A stretch of 64,000 nt of DNA from Candidatus Eiseniibacteriota bacterium (GCA_963783375.1 CAWANH010000029.1:1440001-1504000); one strand, 5' to 3'. Counted from the stretch's first letter, positions 14,978-35,600 are shown. A program made the numbers and translations. The notes: generated by a model not told the origin, from the sequence alone.

Positions 14978-15454
14978 ATGGAAGATCGATCCGTCTCGCT
15001 CCCCCCATCGGGTCGCCGCCGTTTCCTGGGATGGCTCCTGGGCACGTCCGGCGCGGCGTTGCTCTTCTCCGCGCTCTATCCCGTCCTCCGGTTCATCAGT
15101 CCTCCCCGCGTTCCCGAAGCGAGCACCAACCAGGTGGAGGCGGGTCCGGTCAACGACCCCGAGCTCATCCAGAAGGGGTACAAGATCATCCACTTCGGGA
15201 ACGACCCGGTCATCCTCATACGCGCCGCCGAGAATCACTTCGTGGCCCTCTCGGCCACCTGCACGCACCTGGATTGCATCGTGGAGTTTCAGAAGAACCG
15301 GGACCGGATCTACTGCAATTGCCACGGCGGGGTCTACGATCTCTCGGGACGCAACGTGGCCGGCCCTCCCCCCCGACCTCTCACTCCGTTCAAGGTCGAT
15401 GTCGTGGCCGCCCAGAGCGGCCAGCCCGCGACCATCATCGTTTCCCGGGCATAA
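14978..15454 (+). CDS. qcrA: Rieske 2Fe-2S subunit of a Rieske/cytochrome b complex
   Basis: Tat signal SGRRRFLG + TM helix; CTHLDC and CNCHGG boxes; GPPPRPL. Confidence 0.92.
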   Translation: MEDRSVSLPPSGRRRFLGWLLGTSGAALLFSALYPVLRFISPPRVPEASTNQVEAGPVNDPELIQKGYKIIHFGNDPVILIRAAENHFVALSATCTHLDCIVEFQKNRDRIYCNCHGGVYDLSGRNVAGPPPRPLTPFKVDVVAAQSGQPATIIVSRA

Positions 15455-15457
15455 AAC

Positions 15458-16615
15458 ATGGCGCGCGAATCCCTCTTCCGATGGCTTGACCGCCGCCTCC
15501 ACGTCTCCTTCCTCGTCGACGCGGGCTCCCACAAGACCGTCCCCCTCCATCGCTACACCGTCTTCTACTACCTGGGTGGCATGACGCTGTTCTTCTTCAT
15601 CGTCCAGGCGGTGACCGGCGTGCTCCTCATGCTCTACTATCGCCCTTCGGCCGGGGAGGCGTTCGAGTCGGTCGAGTTCATCATGACCACCGTTCCCTTC
15701 GGCTGGCTCCTGCGGTCCATCCATTCCTGGTCGGCCAATCTTCTCGTCTTCTTCGCCTTCCTGCACATGGCCACCGTCTTCATCATGAAGGGCTACCGCC
15801 CGCCGCGGGAACTCACCTGGATCACCGGTTGCGTGGTCTTCTTCCTGGTCATGGCCTTCGGGTTCTCCGGCTATCTCCTTCCCTGGAACCAACTTGCATT
15901 CTTCGCGACCAAGGTGGGCACCGACATCGCGGGATCGGTTCCGGTGGTCGGGGAGTGGCTGCTGCGGTTCCTCCGCGGCGGCGATCGCGTGACCGGAGGA
16001 ACCCTCTCGCGGTTCTACGGCTGGCACGTGGCCATCCTGCCGTCGATCACCCTGCTCCTCCTGGGGCTCCATCTTCTCCTCGTCCAGATCCACGGCATGA
16101 GCGAGCCCGAGGCGGTCCGGCGGCGCGAGGTGAAGTCTCCCGGCATGAAGTTCTTTCCCCATTTCGCCCTCCGCGATCTCTTCGGGTGGACGGTGGCCCT
16201 GGGCGTGCTGGCCGCCCTGGCCGCGTTGTTCCCGTGGGAGCTCGGCGAGAAGGCCAACCCCTTCGCCCCGGCCTACCCGAACATCCGGCCCGAGTGGTAC
16301 TTCATGTTCATGTTCCAGACCCTGAAGCTCGTCCCGGGGGGCGAGATCGCGGGGATCGAGTACGAGGCGTTTCCCATTCTCCTGTTCGGGCTGGGGGGGG
16401 TGGTCCTGCTCCTTCTCCCCCTCTTCGACACCGGCGCCAAGCGGGTACGAACCCTCTTCACGAACGCTCTCGGCGGAGCGGCCCTGGCCTACGCGGTGGG
16501 GATGACGGTGTGGGGCTATCGATCCGCGGTGCCTCTGCTCCTGGTGGCCGCGGTCGCGGCGCTCCTCGTTTTGACGGCGTGGCTCACGCGCGGCACGCGG
16601 AGGTCACCATCGTGA
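15458..16615 (+). CDS. qcrB: Cytochrome b (b6-like N-terminal part fused to a subunit IV-like part)
   Basis: FYYLGG, RSIHSWSAN, LHM, FSGYLLPW, RFYGWH, LHL, IRPEWYF. Confidence 0.93.
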   Translation: MARESLFRWLDRRLHVSFLVDAGSHKTVPLHRYTVFYYLGGMTLFFFIVQAVTGVLLMLYYRPSAGEAFESVEFIMTTVPFGWLLRSIHSWSANLLVFFAFLHMATVFIMKGYRPPRELTWITGCVVFFLVMAFGFSGYLLPWNQLAFFATKVGTDIAGSVPVVGEWLLRFLRGGDRVTGGTLSRFYGWHVAILPSITLLLLGLHLLLVQIHGMSEPEAVRRREVKSPGMKFFPHFALRDLFGWTVALGVLAALAALFPWELGEKANPFAPAYPNIRPEWYFMFMFQTLKLVPGGEIAGIEYEAFPILLFGLGGVVLLLLPLFDTGAKRVRTLFTNALGGAALAYAVGMTVWGYRSAVPLLLVAAVAALLVLTAWLTRGTRRSPS

Positions 16616-18348
16616 TCGGGCTCTTGAACCTCATGCTCCCGCTTCTTCTCGCCGCGGATCCGGCGGCGATCGCGCCTTCGCAATCGCCACAGGCTCCGCA
16701 GACCCCGCAGACCTCCTGCACCACGTGCCACATGAGCCCCGACCTGTTCGACGCCGAGAGCCTGAAGGAGTGGGAGGGGATCGACCGGGACGTGCACCAT
16801 CAGGCCGGGCTCTCCTGCCAGGACTGCCACGGCGGCAACCCGGATCCCGCGTTGAGCGAGGATGCCGAAGCGGCCATGGACCCGAACTTCACCGCCAACC
16901 CCTTCCGGGGGGCCCCGCTCCGGACGGCGATCCCCGCGTTTTGCGGCCGGTGCCATTCCGATCCCGTCTACATGAAGCGTTTCCGTCCCGACCCGCGGAT
17001 CGACCAGGAGCAGGAGTACTGGACGAGCCGCCACGGCAAGGCCTTGCGCACCGGGGATATCAACGTGGCCACCTGCATCGACTGCCACGGCACCCACCGG
17101 ATCCTCCCCCCGGACAACCCCGAGGCCCCGGTGTACCCGACCCACGTGGCCGAAACCTGCGGCCGGTGCCACTCGGATCCCGAGCACATGAAGGGGTATC
17201 GGCTGGACGACGGGCGGCCCCTCCCGGTGGACCAGTACGCCCGTTGGTCACGGAGCGTTCACGCCAACGCCCTCCTGGTGAAGGGGGATCTCACCGCCCC
17301 CACCTGCAACGACTGCCACGGCAACCACGGCGCGACTCCTCCGGGGGTCAAGGAGGTAGCGTTGGTCTGCGGCCAGTGCCACGGCCGCGAAGCGAACCTC
17401 TTCCGGGCGAGCCCCAAGCAGGTGGGATTCCAGAACCACAACGATTTCCTGGCCGAGGCCGGGGACGAGGGTTGCGCCTCGTGTCACGACGCCGACCAAC
17501 CGCCGGGCACGATGACGGGGATTCAGCGCTTCTACGGGTGCGTGGTTTGCCACGAGAACCACGGCGTCGTCCGCCCGACCATCGCCCTCCTGAGCCCGCT
17601 CCCCGACACTCCCTGCGCGCTCTGCCACGAGGGTCCCGAGCCGGCGGGCACTACGGGGGAGCCGGAGAAGGTCAAGCAGCACTTCCGCGAGGTGCGGGAT
17701 GCCCTGCTGGCCAAGACGGTGGGGATGGCCCCCGAAGACCGGTTCGATTGGCTGGTCGACCAGGCGCTGGTCCTCGATACCCACACGCTCCCCGGCGGGG
17801 AAGGCGAGGCTCCCGCCCTCCGGCCCGAGTTTGCGCGCCTCTTCGAGCGGTTCCGTATCGGCAAGACCCACTACACCTTCGTGGATCCGGAAACCGGGAC
17901 CGAGGTCAAAGCCCGCGTTCGCCGGTGCGGCGATTGCCATGCCGCGCCCCCGGATTCGGAGCCTCCGGAAGGCGGCTTCGCCGTCTCCCAGGAGTATCTG
18001 GACGACATGCATGCGCTTACCTTGCAGATCGCCCGGGCCGAGCGGAGCTTCCTCGCCGCCCAGCGCGGCGGCGTCGAGGTCCGGGAGGCGCTTACCTCGC
18101 TCGATAGCGCGGTGGACAGCCAAATCCAGCTCGAGGTGCTCGTCCACGGATTCTCCACCAGCCAGGATGGAGCCTTCGTCGCCAAGCAGAAGGAGGGCAT
18201 GGCCCACGCCCAGGCGGCCGCGGTCACCGCTCAGCGCGCGCTCGAGGAGCTGACGAACCGCCGTCGCGGTCTCAGCATCTCCCTCATCTTCATCCTCATC
18301 TTCCTCACCGCCCTCGGCCTCAAGATCCGAGATCTCTCCCGACCCTGA
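16612..18348 (+). CDS. 11-heme c-type cytochrome with C-terminal membrane anchor
   Basis: GTG overlaps the cytochrome b stop; signal peptide; 11 CxxCH counted; C-terminal TM GLSISLIFILIFLTALGL. Confidence 0.9.
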   Translation: MIGLLNLMLPLLLAADPAAIAPSQSPQAPQTPQTSCTTCHMSPDLFDAESLKEWEGIDRDVHHQAGLSCQDCHGGNPDPALSEDAEAAMDPNFTANPFRGAPLRTAIPAFCGRCHSDPVYMKRFRPDPRIDQEQEYWTSRHGKALRTGDINVATCIDCHGTHRILPPDNPEAPVYPTHVAETCGRCHSDPEHMKGYRLDDGRPLPVDQYARWSRSVHANALLVKGDLTAPTCNDCHGNHGATPPGVKEVALVCGQCHGREANLFRASPKQVGFQNHNDFLAEAGDEGCASCHDADQPPGTMTGIQRFYGCVVCHENHGVVRPTIALLSPLPDTPCALCHEGPEPAGTTGEPEKVKQHFREVRDALLAKTVGMAPEDRFDWLVDQALVLDTHTLPGGEGEAPALRPEFARLFERFRIGKTHYTFVDPETGTEVKARVRRCGDCHAAPPDSEPPEGGFAVSQEYLDDMHALTLQIARAERSFLAAQRGGVEVREALTSLDSAVDSQIQLEVLVHGFSTSQDGAFVAKQKEGMAHAQAAAVTAQRALEELTNRRRGLSISLIFILIFLTALGLKIRDLSRP

Positions 18349-19096
18349 TCCAACCGGCGGGCGGGAGGATCGTCGGAGACGGACGGCGGCCATCATGGGC
18401 ACCGACCGTCCGCCAGGGACCCACCCCTGCGCTTTCCTATCCCCGCTTCGACCTGCGGGGGGGTGGACTTCCATCTCCAGGTCCCCGCCCATACCGGGCG
18501 CGACGCGGTCCGGCGGGACACGGGACGGGATTCCCGGGAAGGGACACGAGCCCGGCCCGTTCCTGAAGTCGTGTCGTGAGGGGAGCCGATGACCGTCGGA
18601 CCGGGCACCGGAGCGTCCGACGACGCAGGCGTACCCGGTGCGGTACGTCGAGGAGGCGGACCGCGAGGACGCCCGAGCCGCCGATCAGATGCCCGCCGGA
18701 CCAGCCGGTTGGTGAATGGGCCGGACCGGAAGTGAACCCCGGGAGATTCCTGCGCCTACCCGGGCACCGCCGGTGGATCCGGATTGCCGGCTTCACCTTG
18801 AGACACCCCACTGTGCCGACAACGATGGACTCAGGTGGAAGCTTCAGACCCATGTGGACACGGGTCGGCGAGGCGCGCCCCTTCAAGTCTCGCCGCCGGA
18901 GACGGCAGTCTCTCGATGGAATAAACGGGCGGGCGCCCATCCGGACGCCCGCCCGACTTCCAGAGACCTATCGTCGCAATGGAACCCTACCGGCTCGGCT
19001 CGGTCCGGTCGACCGTGGACCGAGCCTCCCTCCCTCCGGCGACCGCCGGGCCCCGTTCAGGAACGGCCGCCCGGGCCCCGAGGGGAGGTTGGGAGC

Positions 19097-20074
19097 CTAG
19101 TGCACCGCGGCGGCGCTTGCCCCCATCCTCGAGAGACCCTCCTCGAGCAACGCCTTCGCGTAGTCGGGGTTGTGAACGCCCATGCTCTTGTCCTCGTGCA
19201 TGACGTAGAGCCAGTTGTAGAGCGCAATCCCCTGATCCTCGGGGGCCTCCGAGACGGTCGGATGCCCGTCCTCCGAGTTCTCGTTGATGAGGCCGGCGTT
19301 CACCAGCAACGCTCCGAGCTGGCTCCCCAGGTCCTCGATCTCGGTCTGCACGCCCTTGTAGTCGAAGCTCGTGGCCTCGGGGTGACAGCGCTGGCAGGTG
19401 GCCAGGGCGGGCTCGAAGTGGTGGTCATTGGTATCACCCATGTGACAATCGACGCAGGTGTTCGTCACCGCTCCGTAGTGCGGGCTCACGGTCCCCGTTA
19501 CACCGGCGCCGGCGACGCCGAGCAGCATGGCGCTCTGCGGACCGTGGTGCGGGCCCCAGTGGGAGCTGATACCGGTGATCACGCCGTTTTCCGCCACCGG
19601 GAAATCGCGACGCGGCTGGTGACAGTTGGCGCACAGGTTCCCCTCCCCGCCGTCGAAGGTCGCACCTTCGATGGAGGCGAGGTGAACCGGTTGCGCGGTT
19701 CTCAGCGAGAAGTCCGCCATCGAGTAGGTCTCGTGGATCATGTGACAGGCGCGGCAGTCCTGGCGCGTCGGGTCCGGCTGGCCCATCTCCACCTCGGTCG
19801 GGTTCTCCCCCGCCGCCACCATCTCCTGGAAGCCGTTCCCGGAGTGGCACCCGGCGCAACTTGCGCTGCTCGACCGCACGTAGGCCGTTCCGGTGCCGTG
19901 CACGGACTCCGCCCACTCGGTTTGCTTCCCGGTGATGATGCTGCTGGCGTTGTGGCAATCCGCGCAGGACAGCGGCTTGGTCGACTCGACGCGGGTGATG
20001 GTGCGATCACACGACTGGGCGCCGATCAGCACCGCGACTGCCCCGAGTGCTAGGATGGTTTTTGCGACGGACAT
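19097..20074 (-). CDS. Hexaheme c-type cytochrome lipoprotein (c552/OmcB-like helical C-terminus)
   Basis: Lipobox-like GAQSC; 6 CxxCH; WGPHHGPQ and GVHNPDYAKALL. Confidence 0.85.
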   Translation of the reverse strand: MSVAKTILALGAVAVLIGAQSCDRTITRVESTKPLSCADCHNASSIITGKQTEWAESVHGTGTAYVRSSSASCAGCHSGNGFQEMVAAGENPTEVEMGQPDPTRQDCRACHMIHETYSMADFSLRTAQPVHLASIEGATFDGGEGNLCANCHQPRRDFPVAENGVITGISSHWGPHHGPQSAMLLGVAGAGVTGTVSPHYGAVTNTCVDCHMGDTNDHHFEPALATCQRCHPEATSFDYKGVQTEIEDLGSQLGALLVNAGLINENSEDGHPTVSEAPEDQGIALYNWLYVMHEDKSMGVHNPDYAKALLEEGLSRMGASAAAVH

Positions 20075-20107: not shown

Positions 20108-21676
20108 TTACTTCCCGTGCAGGTCGTAAGCGACGTTGAACCAGACCACATTGGCGGTGTAGTAGCGATCCAGGAGAATGTAATCGTCGTAGTTGTACAC
20201 GTTGTACTTGGCCTCGAGGTGAATGTCGTCCTTGACGGCGTATGCCCCCTCGAAGAAGAGAATCGACTTCTCGATATCCAGGTCGCCGCCCACGTTCAGG
20301 AAGGTGAGACCGCTGGAAAGACGCAGATCCTTGATCCTCTCCAGGTCCACCCGGCCGGTGACGCTGTTGTTCCAGGCCCGGAACCTCCCGGTGCGATCCT
20401 GGAACTCGTCGTTGGAATACTCGTAAGTCCCCGACAACCCGCCCCATCCGGCATAGGCGTACCGGGCGTATGCGGAGGCGACCTGTCCCGTGGCGCTGAC
20501 GTCGATATCGGGATAGTCCCGGTCACGAATACGGAATCCCGAACCGATCGAAAGACCCTTGACCGGGTTCACCTCCAGGTCGCCACGGAAATGGGCGGTC
20601 TCGATGTCCTTGAGAAGGGTCAGCTCCTCCTGGTCCTTCTTCAGCCTGCCCGCGTACCGGAACCTGGCGGTGAGGAGCTTGTTGTACCGGAAGGTCGTCG
20701 CCGCCCGCCAGCTGCTGTAGTACGTGAGGGAGACCTCGTCGTCGTTGGTCTCGTATCCGTAGCCGAGGGAGACGTCGCCGTACCGGTAGAAAACGGTGGC
20801 GTCGATGTCGTTGGTGAAGCGATCCGTCTTGAGATCGGTGGTCTGGTCGTCGATCCGCTGGGCTTCGAATCGGTACTCGAGGCGCAGGGGATCGACCGGA
20901 TCGATCAGGCCGGTGTACTGGAAATTGGCCAGGGTGTAGTCCAGGTCCCCGGTGGAGAGGTTGCTGACCCCGTAGGCCGCCCGCAAGAGGTGTGTCCACC
21001 TGTCGTAGAACATGCAGGGAGTCGCGATCCGGGCCGAGACGACCTGGCCGGTGCGGTCGGCGTCCGAGTTCCGCTGGTCGCTGAAGTCGGAGACGCGATA
21101 GTCGACGGCCAGAACCCTTCGGTTCTTCCGGGCCTCCGCCGACACACGGCCGGAGAGGAGGCCGCTGTCGTACCGGAGCCCCAGGGCGTCGGCGGTTCCG
21201 GGTGGATAGGATAGACGGTTCCCGGTCTGGGTGATGTAGCCCAGGGATCCCTCGAGTTTGATCCAGCGCTCCGGAGTGAATCGCGCGTTCAGGTTCCAGT
21301 TCCGCCGGTCGGACGTCGTGTTGCGGCCGGGGTCGAACACCTGGCGGTTTTGGGTGAGCGAAGCCGACAGCTTGAATCTGCCCGGTCGCCGGTAGAGCAA
21401 CTTCCCTTGACGACTGTCGAAGTTGATCTCCTTGAGGTCGATCATCAGGTAGTTGTCGGGATTCGGCGTTCCGGTCAGGCGGAGCTGGGTGATGGAGAAC
21501 CCGTCGTGGATGTTGTAGGTCTCCTGGACCGCGGACCGGTCCCCCACCTCATCGAGGATGACCCCGCCCAGTTTCACGGTCCCGGTCCACGCCCCCGCCC
21601 GAAGCGGAGCCGCCCCCAGGACGAAGATGAGCATGGCCATGAGTGTCGCTCGGGTCTTCATTCGCATTCGCACCAT
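20108..21676 (-). CDS. Outer-membrane beta-barrel porin, MtrB/PioB-like
   Basis: Signal peptide; alternating aromatic/hydrophobic beta-strands; terminal strand VWFNVAYDL; lies directly after a decaheme cytochrome. Confidence 0.75.
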   Translation of the reverse strand: MVRMRMKTRATLMAMLIFVLGAAPLRAGAWTGTVKLGGVILDEVGDRSAVQETYNIHDGFSITQLRLTGTPNPDNYLMIDLKEINFDSRQGKLLYRRPGRFKLSASLTQNRQVFDPGRNTTSDRRNWNLNARFTPERWIKLEGSLGYITQTGNRLSYPPGTADALGLRYDSGLLSGRVSAEARKNRRVLAVDYRVSDFSDQRNSDADRTGQVVSARIATPCMFYDRWTHLLRAAYGVSNLSTGDLDYTLANFQYTGLIDPVDPLRLEYRFEAQRIDDQTTDLKTDRFTNDIDATVFYRYGDVSLGYGYETNDDEVSLTYYSSWRAATTFRYNKLLTARFRYAGRLKKDQEELTLLKDIETAHFRGDLEVNPVKGLSIGSGFRIRDRDYPDIDVSATGQVASAYARYAYAGWGGLSGTYEYSNDEFQDRTGRFRAWNNSVTGRVDLERIKDLRLSSGLTFLNVGGDLDIEKSILFFEGAYAVKDDIHLEAKYNVYNYDDYILLDRYYTANVVWFNVAYDLHGK

Positions 21677-21680
21677 CCTA

Positions 21681-22640
21681 CTACTGGTGACAGCCTGATT
21701 TGAGACAGCCTTGGTCCCTGAGCGACTCGCTCAGGAAGTTCCGGCTGGTGTAGGAACCGTGAATGTCCACGTGGCAGTCGTTGCACGGAATGTCGGCCCA
21801 TCTGGTTCCGTGATGGGAGTTCATCTGGTGTAGCGGGACGGTGTGGCACTGCTTGCACAGCTGGAAGTTCGGAGCCTCGTAGGGCTGCTTGAGCATCCGC
21901 GGCAGGTAGGACCCGTGGGGGTCGTGACAGTTCATGCAGCCCCCCTCCTCCGTGGAGTAATCCACCGTCGCCTGGTGCTCGTAGGGGAACGGTCCCTGGA
22001 ACTCGCCGTGGCAGCTCGTGCACATCTCGCTGCCGTTCCTGGACATGTCCCGGGAGCCGGCGTCCAGGGTCTTGTGACAATCGGCGCAGTTCATGACTCC
22101 GTCATCGACCGGATGCCGGAAGGGCTTGGCGAACTGATTTCCCACCGCGGTGTGGCACCCCAGGCACAGATCGGGCTGCGCTTTCCTGAGGAGCGGAGGC
22201 TGGGTGGAAGCGTGGACGCTGTGACAGCCGCTGCAGTTCACGTCGCTCCGGGCGTGGACGTTCTTTTCCATCATGTTTTGCTGGTGGCTGTTCAGGTGGC
22301 AGGTGGAGCAGATCTTGCCTTCGACCGCCGCGCTCAGGGCGGCGGGAACCGGCATCGGATACTGCTCCGGGTCCTCCTCGTAGTGACGAGAGTCCCCGCG
22401 GTGGCAATCGGTGCAGGCTACCCGGACATCGGCTCCCTGATCGGATTCCCGGGCCACCCGATGGGGGGTCAGTGCGAGTGAATCGGCCATTCCCTCATGG
22501 CACGTCAGGCATGTTTCGGTTTCACGGGGGTAGTCCCCGGCGGAGGGATCCGGCTGCGATCCGGCGAGAAGAACGATGACAAAAGGAACAAGGAATAACA
22601 CCGGCACGTAGCGACGCAGTTCCTTGGCTTGCTCTTTCAA
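21681..22640 (-). CDS. DmsE/MtrA-family decaheme cytochrome c
   Basis: 10 CxxCH plus terminal CLKSGCH; QFAKPFRHPV, GPFPYEH, CMNCHDPHGS, CNDCHVDIHGS match the MtrA/DmsE pattern; TTG start after GGAGG. Confidence 0.88.
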   Translation of the reverse strand: MKEQAKELRRYVPVLFLVPFVIVLLAGSQPDPSAGDYPRETETCLTCHEGMADSLALTPHRVARESDQGADVRVACTDCHRGDSRHYEEDPEQYPMPVPAALSAAVEGKICSTCHLNSHQQNMMEKNVHARSDVNCSGCHSVHASTQPPLLRKAQPDLCLGCHTAVGNQFAKPFRHPVDDGVMNCADCHKTLDAGSRDMSRNGSEMCTSCHGEFQGPFPYEHQATVDYSTEEGGCMNCHDPHGSYLPRMLKQPYEAPNFQLCKQCHTVPLHQMNSHHGTRWADIPCNDCHVDIHGSYTSRNFLSESLRDQGCLKSGCHQ

Positions 22641-22687
22641 TGGGCCCCCTCCGAAGAAAGACCGCCTATGTAGCTCTTTCAGGGCGA

Positions 22688-22717
22688 AACGTACCAACAC
22701 CTTAACGGAGCCGTCAA
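22688..22717 (-). promoter_or_regulatory. Putative sigma70 promoter for the decaheme-porin-lipoprotein operon
   Basis: TTGACG-N18-TACGTT with TGn extension, in an AT-rich intergenic region. Confidence 0.45.
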
Positions 22718-26629: not shown

Positions 26630-27282
26630 CCGATCCCTCCCTTTCCCGGCGCCACACCCACGTCCGTCCGGTCCGACTCTCCCGTGTCCTTCGGGGGCGG
26701 CGAGCTCGACGCTCCGGCGCCGCCCCGGACCGGAGGCAGGGTGGAGAGAATCCCCTCCACGGTTTCCGAAGCCAATCGCTCCAGGCTGGACACCCGCCCG
26801 ATACCGAACACGCTTTCCTTGTCCCCGCCGTCCCGGCTGTACACCGCACTCCAGAGCACCTTCCCCCCGGGCACCTCCAGGAGCCGGAGAGACACCGAAA
26901 CCTGGGGCACCTGGCTTCCGTCCGCATCCCGATAGCCGTAGGCGAGGACCGACCCCACCAGGAGCGCGTTGGCCCCCATCTCCACCCCCAGTGAATCCAC
27001 CAGGTCCGGGGGCAGGCGGTCGGTCATGATCCACGGCTGCTTGGAGAGCGCAGCCTCCATACGTCCCACATCCACCACCGCGATCCCGCGGTGCTCGGCC
27101 AGGGCCACCGCGAGCATCGGGGCAAGCCGGTCGGGAGCGTCCCGGGTCGGCGTGTAGTTGGCCAGGGGAAGGATCCCCACCCGCCAGCTTCCGCTCAAGG
27201 GCTCCGCAACGTACGCCCGAGGCCCCGGCGCGCAGCCGGCCAGGACCAGGATGATGGCCGCGAGAACCGTCTTCCGGGTCAT
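26626..27282 (-). CDS. Lipoprotein, CsgG/PelC/GNA1162-like fold
   Basis: Lipobox LAGC; VGILPLANYT, LLVGSVLAYG, VSVSLRLLEVPGGKVLWS. Confidence 0.75.
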   Translation of the reverse strand: MTRKTVLAAIILVLAGCAPGPRAYVAEPLSGSWRVGILPLANYTPTRDAPDRLAPMLAVALAEHRGIAVVDVGRMEAALSKQPWIMTDRLPPDLVDSLGVEMGANALLVGSVLAYGYRDADGSQVPQVSVSLRLLEVPGGKVLWSAVYSRDGGDKESVFGIGRVSSLERLASETVEGILSTLPPVRGGAGASSSPPPKDTGESDRTDVGVAPGKGGIG

Positions 27283-27869
27283 CAGCGCCTCGCTCGCGGA
27301 AGTGAGGACAGAAGTCCCCGGCAGACGTCGGCGGTGAGGGTTTCCATCAGCCGCACCCCTCCCCAGCCGAGGATGGGGAAACCGGCCCCGCCCTTCCGGG
27401 TCTCGCTCGCGCTCCAGACCAGGCGGCCGGTGGCCGCGTCCACCAGGCGCACCTCGATGGAAAACAGTGGATAGGAATCGCGCCCGGAGCTCACCATCTC
27501 GTACTGCCGCACCGTGCCCATGAAGATCCCCTGCACGCCCGCCTTTTCTCCCAGTTGGGCCAGTTGTTCGGTCGACCAGGGAGTCTCGGCGGGGATCCCC
27601 CCGCGGATCTGGGTCATGTCCGCGGCGAACTGTCCGGGTTCCACCACCTCGGCGAACCCCCGTTCCAGGAGCTCGGTGAAGAACACGTTGGTGACCCGGT
27701 ATCCCGCGGCCCGATCCTGGGCGAGGCTGGTGAAGGGGATGATGCCCACCCTCTCGTAGAAAGGCAGGTCGGCCTCGGGGTTCAGGAACCGGGTCGGACC
27801 CCCGCAACCGGAGACGGCGATGAGCGTCGTCGCCACCAGGAGCGCTCGGAGCCTCGAAACGTTGTTCAT
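27282..27869 (-). CDS. Lipoprotein, CsgG/PelC/GNA1162-like fold (paralog)
   Basis: Lipobox VSGC; VGIIPFTSL, IFMGTVRQYE, IEVRLVDAATGRLVWSAS. Confidence 0.78.
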   Translation of the reverse strand: MNNVSRLRALLVATTLIAVSGCGGPTRFLNPEADLPFYERVGIIPFTSLAQDRAAGYRVTNVFFTELLERGFAEVVEPGQFAADMTQIRGGIPAETPWSTEQLAQLGEKAGVQGIFMGTVRQYEMVSSGRDSYPLFSIEVRLVDAATGRLVWSASETRKGGAGFPILGWGGVRLMETLTADVCRGLLSSLPRARR

Positions 27870-27887: not shown

Positions 27888-29464
27888 CTAGAAATTCCGG
27901 TCCACCGAGAGACCGTAGGTGTCCAACGTGGCCCGCCCCCGGACCGCGACCTGTCGCCAGGAAAGCTGAACCCGGGTGCGACGGGCAGGCCAGAAAGTGA
28001 AGTCGGTTCCCTTGATGATCTCGGAGGAGCGCGAGGTGAGGACCAGGGCCTCCCGCCGGGACCAGTCGAGGGAGAGGGAGGTGCGCTGGCCGAGCCGCAG
28101 GTTCCCGGTCAGGCTCCCGTAGCGTTCTTCGCGGTCGATCCGGCCCCGTCCGTTCTGGCGCCGGTAGGTCGCCACCAGGTCCGCCCCCGTGGCCGGCTGG
28201 TACCCGACCTGGTACTCCCACTGGCGATCGGTCTGGGCCCTCCCGTCGATTTCGGGGAGGGTGTCCCTCCGCCAGGTGACCTCGAACCGGGTATCCCGGC
28301 TGGGAAGGGTGCGGAGCTGGATCAGGCGATGCCACTGGGTTCCGGTGGAGACCGAGCCCCCCGCGCGCGACGCCCGGAGCTCGGCGCGGGCGTTGATTCC
28401 CTTGCGGAGGAGGCCGTCCACCAGGGTGAAGACGGTGTTCTGGGGGATCGAGCCGTCTTCGGAGCGGATGTTGAAGGAGCGGAGGTAGCCGGACTGGAAG
28501 GTCATCCCCCGAACGATCTCCCGCCGGAAAATGGCCTGGAGACGAGCGTAGTCCGCTTCGATGTCTCCGTCCACGGCCTGGCGCCGTCGATACTCCCGGA
28601 GCCCTTCGAGGCTCAGCCCCTTCACCGGCTGGTAGGCCAGGCGCCCGCTCAGGTAGCGTTCGTTGATGGTCTGATCGGCGGTCAGGGCATTGTCCTGACT
28701 CCGCCCCCAGTACACCAGCGCCGAGGTACCGACGGTGAACCGCCGGGAAGGCGCCCAGCTCGAGTTCAGGTTCATTCGCTGGGTGTAGAAGGTCCGGTCC
28801 CGGTCCCGGGAACCGAAGGTGGAGTAAAGGGCGTCGTAGGTGGCCTGGGCGTTGGCCCGGCCGAGATTGACCCCGGTCCGGAGCCCCCCCGCCACTCCTC
28901 GGTCCGGGTGTCGGGGTTCAGCCCTCCCATGGGGCGGGCGTCCAGTCTCCGCCAGGAAAGGTTGCTTCCGAAAACCCCGCCGGCGGCGTAGGAAACCTCG
29001 GCCCGGCGATCGTCGGTGGTGGAGCGGCCCTGAAGGGTCTCCCGATCCTGGCGTTCGTACTTCAGCGCCATCCTCGGGGCGCCGCGCGGGCTCACGTCGA
29101 GACCGAAAAGCAGGTTCCGGTCCCGGGACGTGCTAACGCCCACCGACGTCTGCTGCCAGGGGGTGAACTGGGTGGTGAGACGCCAGGCAGGCTTTCTGAG
29201 GTCGGCGAAGAAACGGGAGCTCAGGAGGTCCGAGTTCTCTTGTCCCGGGTTCGCCCGGTAGGAGAGGGACATGCGGAGCCTGAGGTCGGCGCTTCCGGGG
29301 AGCACGGCGCGCGTGCTCAGGTCGTAGTAGTGGCGCATGACGTCCGCGTCCGCTATTCCCGAGGTGTGGTGGTACGAACCCACGTAGCGACCCTCGTAGG
29401 CCCCGGCCCCCGCCGGAACGGCCAGAGTCGCCCCGGCCAGGATGAGCGCCGCCCACCGGTGCAT
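27888..29464 (-). CDS. Outer-membrane beta-barrel protein, split by a frameshift at a G7 tract (28884-28890)
   Basis: Signal peptide MHRWAALILAGATLAVPAGAGA; beta-strand pattern in both halves; C-terminal YGLSVDRNF; adding one G joins ...EEWRGG to LRTGVNLG. Confidence 0.75.
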
Positions 29465-30642
29465 CAGGGTCCTCCCCGTCCCCACGGGCTCGGGCTTCCC
29501 GGTGCGCCGTTACCGGGCTCGCCCGGATTGTGAACGTTGTGGGAGGTGGGACCGGAGTAGTCGCGGCCGTGGCAGTCGTAGCAACTCTGGAAGCCGGTGG
29601 AGCGATGGGGGCCCCGGTCGGAGAGGGTGTTCATGACGATTCCCTCCACCGTCTGCGCCCCGGGAATCCCGTCCGAGGCGATGTGGCAGCCGAGGCAGAA
29701 CCGGCGGCACTGGGTCGCGTCGTTCACGGTGTCGGTGAGCCCGCTCCAGTCAACCCGCTCGTCGCTGATCAGGTATCCGTTCGGCTGCACCCGGTTGTGC
29801 CCCTCGGAACCGTGGGGATTGTGGCAGTCGTAGCAGGGGAGCATGTCCCCGACCTGGATGTGCGCGGGCCAGGAGAGGGCGACCCGGGATTCCTTCCGGA
29901 TCTGGTGGCCGGCGTGCTCGCCGTTCAACCCCGCGTCGTAGTAGTCCGCGATGTTCCGGTTCGCGGGGTCCATGCCTCCCGGCGCGTCCTGGTCGTGGCA
30001 GGAGAAGCAAAGCGCGTATTCCTCGGGAGATCCCACCGCGGCGTGGCCGCCGATCCCCCCGTAGGGCTTCAGCAGGAGGTCGCGACGATTCGGGGTGCCG
30101 TGAGGATCGTGGCAGTTCTCGCAACGCCCCTCTCCCGAGGCGTCTCGCCGGGGCATGTCGGGGTCCTGGGCGTGAGGCGAAAAGAAGTGACCCCCGGGCG
30201 TGATTCCCGGATCGGTGTAGGCGGTCTCCCCCGGCCAGCGGCCGCGATAGTTCACGCCGACCAGGCGCTCCCCGCCGGTGTTGGCCTCGAAGTAACCGGC
30301 GTCGGGTTCGGACTCGGGCATGCGGTCGGATTCGCCGAGGGGGTAATTGCCGGGACGGCGGCGGTGGCACGGTTCTGCCCCCTGGTCCCAGAAGGCGAGC
30401 TGGTTGGTGTTCTCGGTGAAGAGGAGGAGCGGATAGGGGGAGGGCTCCCACGCGTCGCCGTGGGGAGGATGGCACTGCTGGCACTGCCCCCGGGCCTGAT
30501 CGGCGTCACGGAGCACCCCGGTCTGCGGGTCCCCATGGGGATCGAAGGGCGTGTCCGCGGATATGTTCCAAGCAGCCAGAAGCAGGGCCGCCGTGAGAAC
30601 CATGCCGGAAACGGGTCTCACACCAAGCTCCCCCGGCCGCAA
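29464..30642 (-). CDS. Exported hexaheme c-type cytochrome with widely spaced hemes
   Basis: Signal peptide; 6 CxxCH plus a lone PCH; start uncertain (30642 or 30603). Confidence 0.85.
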   Translation of the reverse strand: MRPGELGVRPVSGMVLTAALLLAAWNISADTPFDPHGDPQTGVLRDADQARGQCQQCHPPHGDAWEPSPYPLLLFTENTNQLAFWDQGAEPCHRRRPGNYPLGESDRMPESEPDAGYFEANTGGERLVGVNYRGRWPGETAYTDPGITPGGHFFSPHAQDPDMPRRDASGEGRCENCHDPHGTPNRRDLLLKPYGGIGGHAAVGSPEEYALCFSCHDQDAPGGMDPANRNIADYYDAGLNGEHAGHQIRKESRVALSWPAHIQVGDMLPCYDCHNPHGSEGHNRVQPNGYLISDERVDWSGLTDTVNDATQCRRFCLGCHIASDGIPGAQTVEGIVMNTLSDRGPHRSTGFQSCYDCHGRDYSGPTSHNVHNPGEPGNGAPGSPSPWGRGGP

Positions 30643-30670: not shown

Positions 30671-30714
30671 GGATTCGGGCACCGGCAGTGGCCGGATTGT
30701 CGGTGCCCGAATCC
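30671..30714. terminator. Strong stem-loop directly downstream of the omcS-like gene
   Basis: GGATTCGGGCACCG / CGGTGCCCGAATCC perfect 14-bp inverted repeat. Confidence 0.65.
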
Positions 30715-30774
30715 CGTCGAAACGGGGAGGCCGGGCGCGCTAGCGCTTCGGCCGCCCTAATCCACCACCAGGCT

Positions 30775-31845
30775 TTACTGGGCCTGGGTGTGGCACTGAC
30801 CGCAGAGGGCGCGGGCCGAAGTCCCGTCGTCGCCCTGCTCGGTCACCGTGCCGGTGCCGATCATGTAGATCAGGCCGAACGCGTTCTGGTTGCCGTGGCC
30901 CTTGTGGCACGACATGCAGGACTGCGTGAGGCCGGTGTCGGTCCCGTCGTATGCGCCGGCCTTCTGGCCGGTGGGCGACATGACCTGGACCTGGTTGGTC
31001 TTCCCGGTCAGGAAGGCCAGACCGGAGTGACCGCCGCCCAGGGCGCCGATGTCGACACCCGCCGCCGGGTGACGCACGAAGTCCGCGGGAGGAGCTCCCG
31101 TGCCGCCGATCTCCGCCCCGCCGATGTCACCGTGGAAGTTGGTGTGGCAGGCCTTGCAGAAGGAGGCATAGGCGGACGCGGTCGTCACCGGCTCGTTGAA
31201 GGTGATCGCCCCGACCCCGTAGTGGTTGGCGCTGGTGCCGCTGGAGGCATTCTCGTACACCCACTTGGTGAGATCGTTGGCACCCTCGACGTCGCCGCGG
31301 GAGTAGGTCAGGAGGGTCGAGATCCCGCTCAGCGGAGGACCATAACCGCCCAGGTTCCGATAGGTATTGACGTGAGCCGAGTTGCCGCCGTGGGGCGAAT
31401 GGCAGTCGGTGCACTTCAGACCATCGGGATCGCTGAACGTGCCGCCCGGAGCCACGGCCAGCGAGTTCAGGGTGTGCCCGGTGGTCGGCGGATAGAGACC
31501 GTTGCCGCCCAACTCGTTCAGGGCACCCGCCTGACGGACATAGCCGTTGGTGTGGGTTTCGAACACGTCCGGCGCGAGCGCCTGCCCATCGTGGCAGGCC
31601 AGGCACAGGTTGTTGATATCGTCACGGAGCAGGAACTCGAACGGGCCGCCCGGTCCGAGCGGCGTGTAGAAGCCCGATCCGTTGGGGTTGTATCCATGGC
31701 TCTGGCTGTAGTGCATGACGTGGCAGTCGGAGCAGATCAAGGCCGAGCCGGTGTGATAATCACCGGCGAATCCGACGGACACGAGCACGGTCAGAGCGAG
31801 GAGAATCCCCGGACCAAGGAGGAGTTTCTTCCTCATAGCCACCAT
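30775..31845 (-). CDS. omcS: OmcS-like hexaheme cytochrome (candidate nanowire subunit)
   Basis: After the signal peptide: YH..CSDCHVMH, CLACH, GH..APGGT..LKCTDCHSPHG, YRNLGG, FCKACHTNFH, RHPA, CMSCHKGH, RALCGQCH; same order as recalled G. sulfurreducens OmcS. Confidence 0.8.
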   Translation of the reverse strand: MVAMRKKLLLGPGILLALTVLVSVGFAGDYHTGSALICSDCHVMHYSQSHGYNPNGSGFYTPLGPGGPFEFLLRDDINNLCLACHDGQALAPDVFETHTNGYVRQAGALNELGGNGLYPPTTGHTLNSLAVAPGGTFSDPDGLKCTDCHSPHGGNSAHVNTYRNLGGYGPPLSGISTLLTYSRGDVEGANDLTKWVYENASSGTSANHYGVGAITFNEPVTTASAYASFCKACHTNFHGDIGGAEIGGTGAPPADFVRHPAAGVDIGALGGGHSGLAFLTGKTNQVQVMSPTGQKAGAYDGTDTGLTQSCMSCHKGHGNQNAFGLIYMIGTGTVTEQGDDGTSARALCGQCHTQAQ

Positions 31846-32912
31846 TACCTCCCTTGCACGGTTGCGAGACCGATTCCGGAGACTCCGGAACCGCTTTGCT
31901 CCACATGATCGCGGGCCCCCGTCACGGGAGGCACGGCCACCTGGAGCACCTGGCAGCGGGCGCCCGCCCGCTCCAAGACTGCGAGCCGGTCCGCGGCCAG
32001 AAAGGCGCACGCGACCGGATAGTTGAACTGGCCGGGGCCGTGGCCGAAGCCACCGATGCGGCCCAGGTAACCGCCCCGGCGATCGAAGACGCTGATCGAG
32101 TGACGGATGGTGTCCACCACCCAGAGGTTCCCGTTGGGGCCCCAGGTCGCTCCCACGGCCATCGAGAAGGTGCCCTCACCCTCGCCGTGCTCGCCGAACG
32201 CGAAAAGCGGGGTGCCGTCGGTGGCGTTGACCAGGACCGACTTCTCACCCATGGGGTCCACCACCGCCATCATGGTCTCTTCTGCGTTCACCGCCAGAGC
32301 CACCGGCGAGGTGAACGGGCCCTTCTCCACCGGTCCGAAGCCCAGGCTTACCAGCGGCTCACCCACCGGATTCAGCACCACCAGGCCGGGGCGGTTGCCG
32401 GAACAGAGCACGTAAATGCGCCCGCTGCGTCCGATCACCACGTCCTGGAGATGGACCTTGGTGGTGAGCTCGGCGGGAAAGATGGGACGGAACGAGGTGA
32501 TGTGCGATCCCTGGGAGGTCATGACCTCGATGTAGTCGCTGAGCTGGTCGGCCACGAACATGCGGCCGTGATCGTCCAGCGCCACCGAGGCCGGCTCCGC
32601 GCTCGACCCCGCCGATCTGCGGATCTCGTAGTCCAGGGTACCCCGGGAGCGCCAGTTGGAGTCGAAGATGACCAGGCGGTGGTTCCCGGTGTCGGCGATC
32701 ACCACCACCCCCCGGGTGCTGTCGGCCACCATGCCCCGAGGGCGGCGGAAGGCGTCGAGCGGGGCGGGACCGGTGACGATGTCGAGGACGTTGAGGATGG
32801 AGGGGGCGGGATCTTCGGGGATGGGCTCCGCGGGGTAGGCCGGAACCGCGGCCACGGCCGAAGCCGAGGCGGCAAGAACCAGGCACAGTACCGCTCCGCG
32901 GAACGCAGACAT
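31845..32912 (-). CDS. NHL-repeat beta-propeller protein, exported
   Basis: FRRPRGMVAD..VIADTGNHRLVIFD; FGEHGEGEGTF; IGGFGHGPGQFNYP; signal peptide. Confidence 0.88.
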   Translation of the reverse strand: MSAFRGAVLCLVLAASASAVAAVPAYPAEPIPEDPAPSILNVLDIVTGPAPLDAFRRPRGMVADSTRGVVVIADTGNHRLVIFDSNWRSRGTLDYEIRRSAGSSAEPASVALDDHGRMFVADQLSDYIEVMTSQGSHITSFRPIFPAELTTKVHLQDVVIGRSGRIYVLCSGNRPGLVVLNPVGEPLVSLGFGPVEKGPFTSPVALAVNAEETMMAVVDPMGEKSVLVNATDGTPLFAFGEHGEGEGTFSMAVGATWGPNGNLWVVDTIRHSISVFDRRGGYLGRIGGFGHGPGQFNYPVACAFLAADRLAVLERAGARCQVLQVAVPPVTGARDHVEQSGSGVSGIGLATVQGR

Positions 32913-33321: not shown

Positions 33322-33360
33322 AAATAAAACCGGCCCTCCGGAACGGGTCCGGAGGGCCGG
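33322..33360 (-). terminator. Rho-independent terminator after the tetraheme cytochrome gene
   Basis: CCGGCCCTCCGGA-N5-TCCGGAGGGCCGG 13-bp stem followed by TTTTATTT on the minus strand. Confidence 0.8.
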
Positions 33361-33407
33361 CGAACGAACTTTCCCCGCGGTGTCGCGGGTGGGGGGGGAA
33401 CTTTCCC

Positions 33408-34001
33408 CTACTTCCCCTCGGCCTTGGGAATCGGGTGCACGATCTTCTTCAGGTACTCGTCGTACTTGAACTCCTTGTGGAAGGGGTTCCCCTCGGCCAC
33501 GTGACACTTGAGACAGGTCTTCTCGTCGACGACGTTGAGCCCGACGGACTCGGGCTTGATCGTGCCGGCGTAGAGCTCTTTCATGACCTTCAGGCCCTTG
33601 TACCCGCTCCCGGGACCGTGACAGCTCTCACAGGAGATCCCCTCCTCGAGGGTGATCTTCTGGTTCTCCAGGTCCCCCATCACCGGGAAAGCGGTGACGT
33701 GGCACTTCAAACAGGCGTCGGCCTTCTGGGGATCGTCGATTCCCAGCTTCTTCGCGGCCGCCTTGGATTCGTCGCTGGCCAGGGCCTCGTAGGCCTTGGC
33801 GTGCGCGGTTCCCGCCCACACCTTGTGCTGGTCACCGGTCGCCGCCTTGCTGTGGCACATCTTGCAGGTCTTGACGCCTACGTAGGTGTACTCGGCCTTC
33901 TTGGCCTCGTCCTTCTTCGCATCCTGGGCCGCAGCCACCAGCCACGTTCCGGCCAACGCCAGACCCACGGAAAGGACGATCAGGGTTCTCTTGCCTCTCA
34001 T
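33408..34001 (-). CDS. Periplasmic tetraheme cytochrome, c554 family
   Basis: Signal peptide; YVGVKTCKMCH, HAKAYEAL, CLKCH, ISCESCHGPGSGY, CLKCH. Confidence 0.88.
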   Translation of the reverse strand: MRGKRTLIVLSVGLALAGTWLVAAAQDAKKDEAKKAEYTYVGVKTCKMCHSKAATGDQHKVWAGTAHAKAYEALASDESKAAAKKLGIDDPQKADACLKCHVTAFPVMGDLENQKITLEEGISCESCHGPGSGYKGLKVMKELYAGTIKPESVGLNVVDEKTCLKCHVAEGNPFHKEFKYDEYLKKIVHPIPKAEGK

Positions 34002-34088
34002 AGTTTACCTCCCTGTCCGACCGGGCACCCGGCTCGGACGCTCACCTTCACCAGAACTCGTCGCGCAACCATACAGGACGACTCCAAC

Positions 34089-35600
34089 CTAGTAAATGGA
34101 ATCGTCACCGGAATGACAGTCGTAACAGTGCATCTCCTTCCAGGCCCCATCGATATCCACCGGGTGCTTGAACTCCAACCCCTGGGTGGTCACCGTGTCC
34201 CCCAGATCCTCGGCCAGACCCTGGGCGATGATCGTGTGGCAGAGGTTGCAGTTCGAGCTGATCTGCTCTCCGTCGGCGTTCCGGAGTTCCGAGCCGTGGC
34301 ACCGGAAACAACCGGGAAACAAAAAGTGACCGCGATTATCCGGATACCTGTCCCAACGCACTTTCATGGCCGGGAACATGTTCTGGTTGTAGATACCCTG
34401 GACCGCGGGAATTGCTTCCACGGGGAGGTCGACCCCCTTGCCGGCGTAGAAGTCCTTCAACGAGGCGGCGATGGAGTCCATGGCCCCCGCCTCGGTCTCG
34501 TAGTTCCGCGACAGGACGGCCACCGCCTCCTGCTTGATCCACGGGATGCCCGGGCTCAGAACCCCCGCCGCCATGGCGGTGTTCACCGCCTGCATGGGAG
34601 AGAGGTAGTTGTGGGAGGGGCGGTTGTGGCAATCGATGCAGTCGAGCTGCCGTACCAGCCCCTTGGCGCTCCGCGTGGTCATGACCGAGTCGGGGAGCGG
34701 CTCCCCGGTCCGCGAGAACACGACCTCTTTCCCATCCTTCATCCAGGTCACCTGGTCGAAGGCCTGCCGGGAGGAATCGGTCGAGACGTAGGTCATGTGG
34801 TTTTCCTTGTCGATGTGCCAGTGGATGCCCGATGCGTGGCCCTGGCTCGACGCCGAGGTTCCCCCCACCTTGAACAGCATCTCGATCTTCCAGTGGGTGT
34901 TCTCCTTGTCCCCGAGGTAGTGGTCGTGGGTCACCTCGTTGGCCGGATAGAACTTGGCCGGCCAGTGGCACTGCTCACAGGTCTCCTGGGCGGGCCGGAG
35001 ATTCTGGACCGGGGTCTCGATGGGGGTGGGATAGGTGTGCAGGATGGTCTTGAAAACCTGCCGGGCCCCGGAGAGCTTGCTCCGGACGTACCATCCGGCC
35101 CCGGGCCCGATGTGGCAGCTGACGCACTCCACCCGGGCGTGGGCCGACCTGAGGTACGCGGTGTGCTCCGGCTGCATGACGGTGTGGCAGGTCGTCCCGC
35201 AGAACTCCACCGACTCGGTGTACTGGTACCCCTGGTAGAGCCCGATGGTGGTGACGAGGAGGAAGACGCAGGTGCCGGCCACGAAGGTGATCAGGGCGTT
35301 TCGATGATGGGGGTTCCCGAGGTCCACCACCACCGGCCGCAACTGCCCCCGCTCCCGGCGCTTCTTCTCCCGCCACATCCCAAGGGGGATGAGGAGGAGA
35401 CCCAGGACCAGCACCCCCGGGAACACCATGTAGATGAAGATCCCGATGTAGGGGTTGGTCCCCCCCGAAAAGACGTTGAGGAGGTAGAGAATGACCACCG
35501 CGGCAAGGCCGAAGAGCGCGGCGGCCGCCCCGAGCAGGGTGATGACGTTGTAGGCCAACCCCGGATAAAGTTGCTTCTTCTTTTCGTTCTTCGCGTTCAC
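34089..35600 (-). CDS. imcH: ImcH-like inner-membrane heptaheme NapC/NirT-family quinol oxidase
   Basis: 3 N-terminal TM helices; YTESVEFCGTTCHTVM.PE, HARVECVSCHIGPGA, LRPAQETCEQCHWP, GIHWH, CIDCHNRPSH; 6 CxxCH + 1 CxxxCH. Confidence 0.82.
   Translation of the reverse strand: MNAKNEKKKQLYPGLAYNVITLLGAAAALFGLAAVVILYLLNVFSGGTNPYIGIFIYMVFPGVLVLGLLLIPLGMWREKKRRERGQLRPVVVDLGNPHHRNALITFVAGTCVFLLVTTIGLYQGYQYTESVEFCGTTCHTVMQPEHTAYLRSAHARVECVSCHIGPGAGWYVRSKLSGARQVFKTILHTYPTPIETPVQNLRPAQETCEQCHWPAKFYPANEVTHDHYLGDKENTHWKIEMLFKVGGTSASSQGHASGIHWHIDKENHMTYVSTDSSRQAFDQVTWMKDGKEVVFSRTGEPLPDSVMTTRSAKGLVRQLDCIDCHNRPSHNYLSPMQAVNTAMAAGVLSPGIPWIKQEAVAVLSRNYETEAGAMDSIAASLKDFYAGKGVDLPVEAIPAVQGIYNQNMFPAMKVRWDRYPDNRGHFLFPGCFRCHGSELRNADGEQISSNCNLCHTIIAQGLAEDLGDTVTTQGLEFKHPVDIDGAWKEMHCYDCHSGDDSIY

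Follow-up and report, generated by a model that had tools for sequence, protein, structure and literature searches.

OmcS, the wire-forming cytochrome of Geobacter sulfurreducens, belongs to the osc cluster (GSU2505-GSU2493; PMC13194489, 10.1101/2025.11.06.686851, 10.1101/2025.10.22.684050). According to the accessible parts of this literature, OscH is reported to fold OmcS (PMC13194489 / 10.1101/2025.11.06.686851) and the OscE-type barrel is proposed to be a secretion pore, with nanowire secretion, anchoring and electron feeding all stated to be open questions (PMC12307469 / 10.1101/2025.10.22.684050). Two further systems are relevant here: ImcH, defined by three transmembrane (TM) segments and a CX3CH motif followed by six CxxCH motifs, and confined to Fe(III) reducers in a 2018 survey whose accessible part records no mtrAB adjoining imcH (PMC6295460); and the Mtr complex, whose MtrB barrel is described with 26 strands (PDB 6R2Q, PMC7198977). 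Here we describe a locus (positions 14978-35600) within a 64,000-nucleotide stretch of DNA from Candidatus Eiseniibacteriota (GCA_963783375.1 CAWANH010000029.1:1440001-1504000; the whole stretch is referred to as the window), in which parts resembling these systems lie side by side as a mosaic of three separable cytochrome modules, not as one operon.

We propose, at a confidence that we regard as evenly balanced, that this mosaic exports respiratory electrons from menaquinol to extracellular acceptors over two routes, one MtrAB-like and the other made of an OmcS-fold filament on a plugged barrel. In the proposed scheme, ImcH would oxidise menaquinol and pass the electrons to a c554-family tetrahaem cytochrome, with a complex of Rieske protein, cytochrome b and an 11-haem cytochrome as an optional second quinol oxidase that may have arrived later at the site. 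Route A would cross the outer membrane through MtrA inside a 26-strand barrel (barrel 1) and end on a hexahaem lipoprotein. In route B, a 42-haem protein would span the periplasm and a second OmcS-like cytochrome would fill a second barrel (barrel 2). This plug would serve as the base for head-to-tail polymerisation of the OmcS-fold subunit, such that barrel 2 would act as anchor and electrical feed-through and not merely as a secretion pore. The published sequence features of ImcH, the presence of mqnC and of cytochrome c assembly genes in the genome, the MtrA and MtrB matches, the OmcS fold and the osc gene order all argue for such an outward path.

A compact osc-like cassette

The middle of the locus is taken up by a cassette of eight genes (22912-32912, ~10 kb) situated between imcH-c554 on one side and mtrA-mtrB-lipoprotein on the other (Table 1). 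Its candidate filament subunit was not recognised as OmcS by a single-sequence phmmer search against the PDB; a profile built from 61 sequences matched OmcS (6ef8) with an E-value of 5.8e-21, and the structural model of the protein matched it both with Foldseek (E 6e-6) and with VIA (Z 13.7, root-mean-square deviation 3.7 A, 260 aligned residues, 22% identity). The protein retains six proximal and six candidate distal haem-ligating histidines, which are each present in 16/16 canonical-type sequences and in 57-58/58 of the aligned sequences.

For the remaining genes, comparison was made with 34 metagenome loci carrying the OmcS N-terminal motif (canonical loci), and the Osc letters used here were assigned by position in these loci, not by alignment to the G. 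sulfurreducens Osc sequences; in the supplement of PMC13194489, GSU2493-2500 were not matched. The canonical loci run in the order NHL propeller, OmcS, YncE-type propeller, probable barrel of 705-774 aa, two lipoproteins, SurA/PPIase (peptidyl-prolyl isomerase) and large cytochrome, which agrees with what is accessible of the published description of the osc operon (PMC13194489, 10.1101/2025.11.06.686851). The window keeps an NHL propeller, an OmcS-fold hexahaem cytochrome, a barrel, two homologous lipoproteins and large paired-CxxCH cytochromes in this same order. The hidden Markov model (HMM) of the NHL family scores 79-128 bits on whole genes directly upstream of canonical OmcS, and those of the two lipoprotein families score 131-183 bits in five canonical loci; homologues of the OscF-type lipoprotein have GNA1162/LpoB matches and those of the OscG-type lipoprotein CsgG/LpoB-type Pfam matches. 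Likewise, the 42-haem protein gives its best alignments over residues ~2-657 with the 25/26-haem proteins from five other loci and over residues ~645-1041 with the 16-haem neighbours of those proteins, 16 being presumably also the haem number of GSU2494 (OscJ). The oscI/oscJ pair corresponds to GSU2495/GSU2494, of which GSU2495 is given with 26 haems (PMC13194489 / 10.1101/2025.11.06.686851).

In contrast to the canonical loci, the window has neither the YncE-type propeller of the OscD position nor the SurA/PPIase of the OscH position, carries a DUF2155-like protein in addition and has OscI and OscJ fused into one 42-haem chain; its OscG-type lipoprotein is 218 aa compared to 375-411 aa, and the host is without a ResB match. 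Moreover, in the compact type a distinct OmcS paralogue with 5 to 12 haems precedes a shorter barrel (~550 compared to 705-774 aa). The 183-aa DUF2155-like protein was ruled out as a ResB-like protein or a fragment of OscH, given an HH probability of 0.1% to the OscH-position PPIase and no match to PF05140 (ResB) in the genome.

The same architecture recurs elsewhere. Among 72 loci (76 minus four repeats of the same genomes, 18 of the 72 reaching no large cytochrome), a whole 41/42-haem gene is found in 38, of which 37 have the DUF2155-like gene and none a PPIase or propeller within the available stretch; the PPIase is present in 4/72 loci, including L111 and L116, and in none of them together with a fused large cytochrome. 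In these counts, L152 and L165 were scored as split and represent a frameshifted and a truncated 42-haem gene, respectively, and that of L001 is frameshifted. Judged by gene content, the cassette is a compact variant of the osc cluster that falls outside strict osc membership for want of OscD and OscH. An earlier interpretation of the window made without database searches (the sequence-only reading) had missed this identity of the middle 10 kb, as well as the origin of the 42-haem protein from two fused osc cytochromes and the absence of an MtrC. In the literature listings searched, we found nothing on OmcS or the osc cluster in Eisenbacteria; the title of the osc cluster paper by Shen et al. 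2025 (10.1016/j.chembiol.2024.12.013) calls the machinery widespread, and the text or supplements of that paper may already list the variant.

Barrel 2 and its predicted cytochrome plug

The reading frame of barrel 2 is broken in the window where the G-run 28884-28890 is one base short. In the closest relative (G074, ~94% identity in this region), the additional base is present and the frame stays open, and a contig from DNA run X1 spanning 28707-29502 aligns with 0 substitutions and 1 gap; the split is therefore an assembly error, and both two separate genes and a pseudogene are ruled out. The intact orthologue resembles outer-membrane-protein clusters of the Atlas (0.94-0.98), with a recognition value of 1948 that lies below the 2300 mark and makes this a lead only. 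Barrel 2 matches the OscE-position barrels with an HH probability of 96.9% over 211 columns; the MtrB-like family matches barrel 2 with 95.5% and the OscE-type barrels with 2.5%.

Directly upstream of barrel 2, a cytochrome of the OmcS paralogue family (5 to 12 haem motifs) is encoded in 46/48 loci; that of the window had no match in a single-sequence PDB search. When the L001 barrel and the L001 paralogue, which is 66% identical to that of the window, were modelled together from custom alignments, the complex scored 0.69 (runs 0.50, 0.70 and 0.69), compared to 0.00 for the best of three controls, the mark being one reached by 116/157 solved and 2/215 mismatched pairs. The runs agreed in at least 30% of contacts, with a partner pLDDT of at least 66. 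The paralogue is touched by 105 barrel residues between positions 8 and 517, arginine being the commonest, and 53 of the 104 spacings between them are of two residues, as in strands facing a lumen, for which reason we read the paralogue as lying in the barrel lumen. On its side, residues 68-338 make contact, and the confident contacts leave out the N-terminal haem arm, where the OmcS-type histidine three residues past the first CxxCH is retained. The second OmcS-like cytochrome is thus predicted to sit inside barrel 2. Should this lumen model hold, barrel 2 would serve as anchor and feed-through, a refinement of the secretion-pore proposal. No report of an OmcS paralogue plugging a barrel was found in the literature listings searched.

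In most members of the paralogue family, the first haem is followed by an additional CX8CH-type site, of which the protein at 29464-30603 and its closest relatives have lost the first cysteine. Barrel-adjacent cytochromes with 12 haems and about twice the length are encoded at L020:5282-7390, L026:3522-5657 and L044:17347-19581, which suggests a longer plug or stalk. A lone 7-haem member is found elsewhere in the host genome (G000:C28:1145449-1146594; L097:16450-17595), 18 kb from a larger cytochrome cluster (L096, below), and groups with 7-haem genes that precede the cassette in L014 and L048.

The filled pore also bears on a reading that we consider rather unlikely, in which electrons leave the cell without a filament and the cassette forms a fixed conduit, with the 42-haem protein as periplasmic wire, barrel 2 as plugged pore and the OmcS-fold protein as a monomeric or small-oligomeric terminal reductase at the surface. 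A cytochrome gene directly upstream of a barrel is the layout of porin-cytochrome pairs, and a filled pore, as in the model, suits a conduit and is hard to reconcile with a secretion channel. Neither OscH nor OscD is present, and OmcS paralogues are, in the accessible literature, not known to polymerise. Set against this, one haem of OmcS is described as ligated by the neighbouring subunit, the ligand being what we take to be His16, and in the window protein the histidine three residues after the first CxxCH is kept as in OmcS, together with five other candidate distal histidines and the remaining osc gene order.

Several further points weigh against the proposed outward path with its filament, and the Rieske, distribution and RNA-library data given below add to them. 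The candidate subunit escaped the single-sequence search for OmcS, is only ~24% identical to canonical-type OmcS and forms a separate clade on a long branch. The OscH-position PPIase is absent from the cassette, with the best match in the genome (50.5 bits) lying elsewhere, and so is the OscD-position propeller. Accessible reports have only OmcS, of four G. sulfurreducens homologues, forming wires, and find OmcS dispensable for anode growth and for Fe(III) oxide reduction (PMC13194489 / 10.1101/2025.11.06.686851). As for the plug, it was modelled on orthologues from custom alignments, its score may stem from likeness to solved porin-cytochrome complexes, and the pairing of the OmcS-like protein with barrel 2 was not among the three controls.

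Proposed quinol oxidation, the Mtr-like route and the layout of the locus

The predicted quinol oxidase passes the PF03264 threshold, its PDB match being NrfH, and resembles G. sulfurreducens ImcH in length, in its three TM helices (counted by hydropathy scan, not TMHMM), in the CX3CH plus six CxxCH motifs and in the four residues (Glu, Lys, Gln and Tyr) proposed to form the quinol site. These last residues (E, K, Q and Y) stand at offsets -10, +36, +42 and +51 from His139, the same offsets as E127, K173, Q179 and Y188, proposed for G. sulfurreducens ImcH (10.1101/2023.05.03.539133, accessible part). Carrying all sequence features of ImcH that we could trace in publications, the product is assigned as a true ImcH and is predicted to oxidise menaquinol. 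Unlike its G. sulfurreducens counterpart, it is paired with a c554-family tetrahaem cytochrome, the probable periplasmic electron carrier, whose gene also adjoins imcH in G072, G073, G075, G076 and G066.

The decahaem cytochrome matches chain 6r2q_A of the Mtr complex (phmmer E 9.5e-25) and scores 181.8 bits against TIGR03508, slightly below the cut-off of 192.2. Barrel 1 has MtrB (6r2q_B) as its best Foldseek match (E 4.4e-15, TM 0.77); its family profile found no match among PDB sequences, and PF11854 is matched by 24/86 aligned homologues, not by the window protein. As in the Shewanella complex (6R2Q), a decahaem MtrA homologue thus stands beside a 26-strand barrel of the same fold, although the window barrel has ~130 residues fewer than the solved chain, with which it shares 11% identity, the pair is linked to imcH, and a hexahaem lipoprotein takes the place of decahaem MtrC. 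This lipoprotein had no TIGR03507 (MtrC/OmcA) and no PDB match, only a weak match to PF02335 in its C-terminal part, and is on these grounds not an MtrC, which puts the Mtr part outside strict MtrCAB membership; its gene also follows the barrel in G072, G073, G075, G121, G162 and G163.

These same parts might be run in reverse, taking electrons from Fe(II), minerals or partner cells into quinone reduction or O2 respiration in the manner of MtoAB/PioAB. MtrAB without MtrC reportedly occurs in iron oxidisers as well, the genome has haem-copper oxidases, and Mtr pathways are described as reversible (PMC6295460, accessible part). As OmcS is known from outward transfer and ImcH was seen in the survey just cited only in Fe(III) reducers, we consider inward flow very improbable.

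The third module shares with ExtP-type Rieske/cytochrome b complexes (NF040969) the Rieske boxes, the twin-arginine motif, the four b-haem histidines and the PEWY motif. It differs from them in that the cytochrome b scores 213 bits against NF040969, under the ExtP cut-off of 290, and in its C-anchored 11-haem subunit, which occupies the place of cytochrome c1 and gave no PDB sequence match, so that it is without a solved relative. Close cytochrome b homologues are found in 78/206 genomes at E<=1e-40. Given haem-copper oxidases at three sites of the genome, this unit may serve another respiration.

In a six-frame translation, the eight multihaem cytochromes carry 11, 6, 10, 42, 6, 6, 4 and 6 CxxCH motifs, with one CX3CH in addition in the last (91 + 1 = 92), which reproduces the counts of the sequence-only reading. 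Over all six frames, 92 CxxCH fall within 14978-35600, 0 within bases 1-14977 and 1 within 35601-64000, and the density of haem motifs in the locus is far above chance. The Rieske, cytochrome b, NHL, c554 and NapC/NirT families were confirmed with Pfam and NCBIfam, and both barrels, the two lipoproteins and the 183-aa protein had no match in either. The supposed Rieske/cytochrome b pair, the ImcH-like NapC/NirT protein and the mixture of Shewanella-type (MtrAB) and Geobacter-type (ImcH, OmcS) parts have all withstood testing; of the two proposed beta-barrels, barrel 1 is borne out by its 26-strand model and barrel 2 stays a lead.

Three genes on the plus strand converge on the other 13, all on the minus strand. 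Strong terminator-like hairpins after c554 and after the last minus-strand gene, together with the convergent plus-strand unit, indicate probably at least three transcription units. In the terminator scan, nine sites were found compared to 11.8 in shuffles, and only the position and the 13-14 bp stems of these hairpins are informative; the one at 18926-18955 also follows the orthologue in G073, with 94% conservation. A scan of the stretch for sigma-70-type promoters found none. The claim of one coherent and complete island is not supported as it stands, in view of these transcription units, the absence of the Rieske unit from the site in four of five close relatives examined and an OmcS part that travels alone.

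Table 1. Predicted genes and hairpins of the locus, by position in the window
Feature	Position	Strand	Evidence
Rieske [2Fe-2S] protein with twin-arginine motif	14978..15454	+	PF00355 45.7 bits; RRRFL, CTHLDC, CNCH
Cytochrome b, Rieske/cytochrome b type	15458..16615	+	PF00033 171.9 bits (both Pfam matches above cut-off); His89/103/190/205; PEWY at 278; 7 hydrophobic segments
11-haem cytochrome c, signal peptide and C-terminal membrane anchor (start uncertain)	16612..18348	+	11 CxxCH; hydrophobic 2-20, 554-572
Terminator-like hairpin closing the minus-strand unit	18926..18955	-	13-bp stem and T-run
6-haem cytochrome, probably lipoprotein, downstream of MtrB-like gene	19097..20074	-	6 CxxCH; Cys after signal peptide
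MtrB-fold outer-membrane barrel (barrel 1)	20108..21676	-	AlphaFold2 pLDDT 88, 26 strands
MtrA/DmsE-like decahaem cytochrome (start uncertain)	21681..22700	-	10 CxxCH
42-haem cytochrome, fusion of OscI-type (26-haem) and OscJ-type (16-haem)	22912..26076	-	42 CxxCH every ~18-30 residues
Exported conserved 183-aa protein, DUF2155-like (lead only), OscH place	26078..26629	-	Atlas neighbours with DUF2155 at 0.83-0.84
Lipoprotein, homologous to C-terminal domain of OscG-position proteins	26626..27282	-	HH probability 99.7%, E 1.5e-25
Lipoprotein, OscF-position homologue	27282..27869	-	Family HMM 131-144 bits on whole genes of 5 canonical-OmcS loci
Second outer-membrane barrel (barrel 2, OscE position), one gene	27888..29464	-	Frameshift in window at 28884-28890; intact 554-aa orthologue in L001
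Second hexahaem cytochrome, distant OmcS paralogue (start uncertain)	29464..30603	-	6 CxxCH; HH 99.2% to OmcS-like family
OmcS-fold hexahaem cytochrome, candidate filament subunit	30775..31836	-	6 haem motifs; profile and fold match to OmcS
NHL-repeat beta-propeller, first cassette gene	31845..32912	-	PF01436
Terminator-like hairpin between c554 and osc-like cassette	33329..33361	-	14-bp stem and T-run
Tetrahaem c554-family exported cytochrome	33408..34001	-	PF13435 65.3 bits
ImcH quinol-oxidising heptahaem cytochrome, 503 aa	34089..35600	-	3 TM segments, CX3CH and 6 CxxCH; PF03264

To the left, the locus is flanked by sodium-translocating decarboxylase genes (11284-14745; beta subunit over the cut-off, biotin carrier and a methylmalonyl-CoA decarboxylase alpha-like protein). 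To the right (35910-41933, 43668-43749 and 59460-61326) lie genes for an aldo-keto reductase, thioredoxin reductase, the transhydrogenase pntAB, tRNA-Glu and separate LigD polymerase and ligase domains; this sole tRNA is 8 kb from the locus.

Host, history and distribution of the cassette

The host belongs to Ca. Eisenbacteria and not to Geobacterales/Desulfuromonadales, in line with the non-Geobacter origin suspected from the sequence. Its genome (4.73 Mb, 97% complete) encodes an RpoB that is 86% identical over 873 aa to that of the L001 genome, titled Ca. Eisenbacteria and a member of the same family, and sister to it in a quick 19-row tree (SH-aLRT 100). One Eisenbacteria-like genome in this tree, G010 (L017 / L062), is titled Bacteroidota, so record titles in the group may be unreliable. 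The genome holds mqnC of the futalosine pathway to menaquinone, along with three cytochrome c assembly genes, four NrfD matches and 36 open reading frames (ORFs) with at least three CxxCH (392 motifs in all). The public run holding most of this DNA was a soil metagenome, and relatives matching the stretch came from salt marsh and sediment.

Other cytochrome genes also stand out. This genome has a larger second cluster (G000:C28:1119317-1127193; L096:9318-17194) of four adjacent ORFs with 23, 51, 9 and 14 CxxCH (97), whose whole proteins had no NCBIfam match over the cut-off, except that the 51-haem protein scored for a trihaem repeat domain. An octahaem cytochrome of the tetrathionate reductase family (TIGR04315, over the cut-off) is encoded at L099:5639-7195, and L099:11320-13998 encodes a fusion of an 11-haem protein with a cytochrome b domain, which is presumably CbcL-like. 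Two NrfD matches on different contigs of the host genome (G000:C1:146158-147093 and C13:1777-2712) score identically and both have 13-haem neighbours, reflecting either duplication or redundant assembly.

Comparison with relatives points to how the mosaic was assembled. In G072, a 98% complete genome of the same genus, imcH-c554-mtrA-mtrB-lipoprotein is contiguous and the cassette is absent; in G073, a 124-bp remnant (88% identity) of the 42-haem gene survives next to c554; the complete minus-strand array is found in G075, which belongs to a different genus; and a short contig of G076 carries the genes from imcH to the 42-haem gene. Loss of the OmcS-like gene in G074 was rejected, an assembly gap lying between the contigs that cover 21190-29276 and 33682-41750. 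Most likely, by parsimony alone, an ancestral imcH-c554-mtrAB operon acquired the cassette early in the history of the family, and some members have lost it since. With a GC content of 68.6%, close to that of the flanks (68.7-69.4%), the cassette gives no compositional support for recent horizontal gain; the imcH-c554 and mtrAB parts have 63%.

In G072, G073 and G071, different cytochromes with 8-16 haems occupy the same chromosomal site (L087:8835-14616; L088:7963-10184; L095:10310-15815), which makes the site look like an exchange hot spot for cytochromes. It could then be argued that the locus gathers unrelated cytochrome operons that form no single circuit, with the Rieske unit serving ordinary or N/S-oxyanion respiration. 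The convergent Rieske unit, present at this site in G000 and G074 only and missing in G071, G072, G073 and G075, would fit such a view, as would the cytochrome b homologues and the 36 multihaem ORFs counted above. However, G066, of another family, has c554, imcH, mtrB, mtrA, Rieske, cytochrome b and 11-haem genes clustered in another order (no cassette gene being found in the 20 kb around them), and in four other genomes (L146-L149) the cassette is followed, in the same orientation, by close Rieske/cytochrome b genes, and we hold a chance gathering to be improbable.

The outward path with its OmcS-fold filament has to be seen against the distribution of its parts. The OmcS-like query matched 62/206 Eisenbacteria genomes and a lipoprotein query 68/206; ImcH (E<=1e-50) is found in 12 of these 62 OmcS-like genomes and adjacent in three. 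Counting against a fixed partnership, 47 of the OmcS-like matches fall in two families in which ImcH is present in 2/130 genomes, and the OmcS-like gene, ImcH and this MtrB family occur together in 2/206 genomes, plus G074 across its assembly gap. In favour of the outward path, ImcH is encoded beside the cassette in 6 and cytochrome b in 8 of the 72 loci, a quinol oxidase being present in 13 loci in all. The titles of loci with the fused-type cytochrome include Eisenbacteria, Krumholzibacteriota, Latescibacterota and Zixiibacteriota, kin among them not being independent.

In RNA libraries, contigs 95-99% identical to the window cover parts of the omcS-like gene in 6/6 runs and, among the matches listed, c554 in 5/6, the runs having been chosen via the stretch holding omcS, stemming from relatives and not this strain, and possibly containing DNA. 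Coverage of the barrels, the lipoproteins and the 42-haem gene is partial or none, and these contigs cannot rank genes by level. They lend weak support to transcription of the omcS-like region.

Overall, the individual parts are all of known kinds, and what is new is the predicted placement of an OmcS paralogue within barrel 2. The compact cassette offers a natural reduction of the osc machinery, with eight genes in strict order and neither OscD nor OscH, and makes this paralogue-in-barrel arrangement a specific prediction; with its subunit in 62/206 genomes, it points to extracellular respiration in an uncultured phylum. A bolder and more doubtful possibility is that Eisenbacteria and neighbouring candidate phyla possess a second, OscH-free class of OmcS-fold nanowires, in which a dedicated OmcS paralogue plugs the barrel, nucleates and anchors the filament and wires it to a single 42-haem chain spanning the periplasm. 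If such a class exists, the locus would hold the whole path from menaquinol, through ImcH, to the wire, and would explain in concrete terms how such filaments are held in place and charged.

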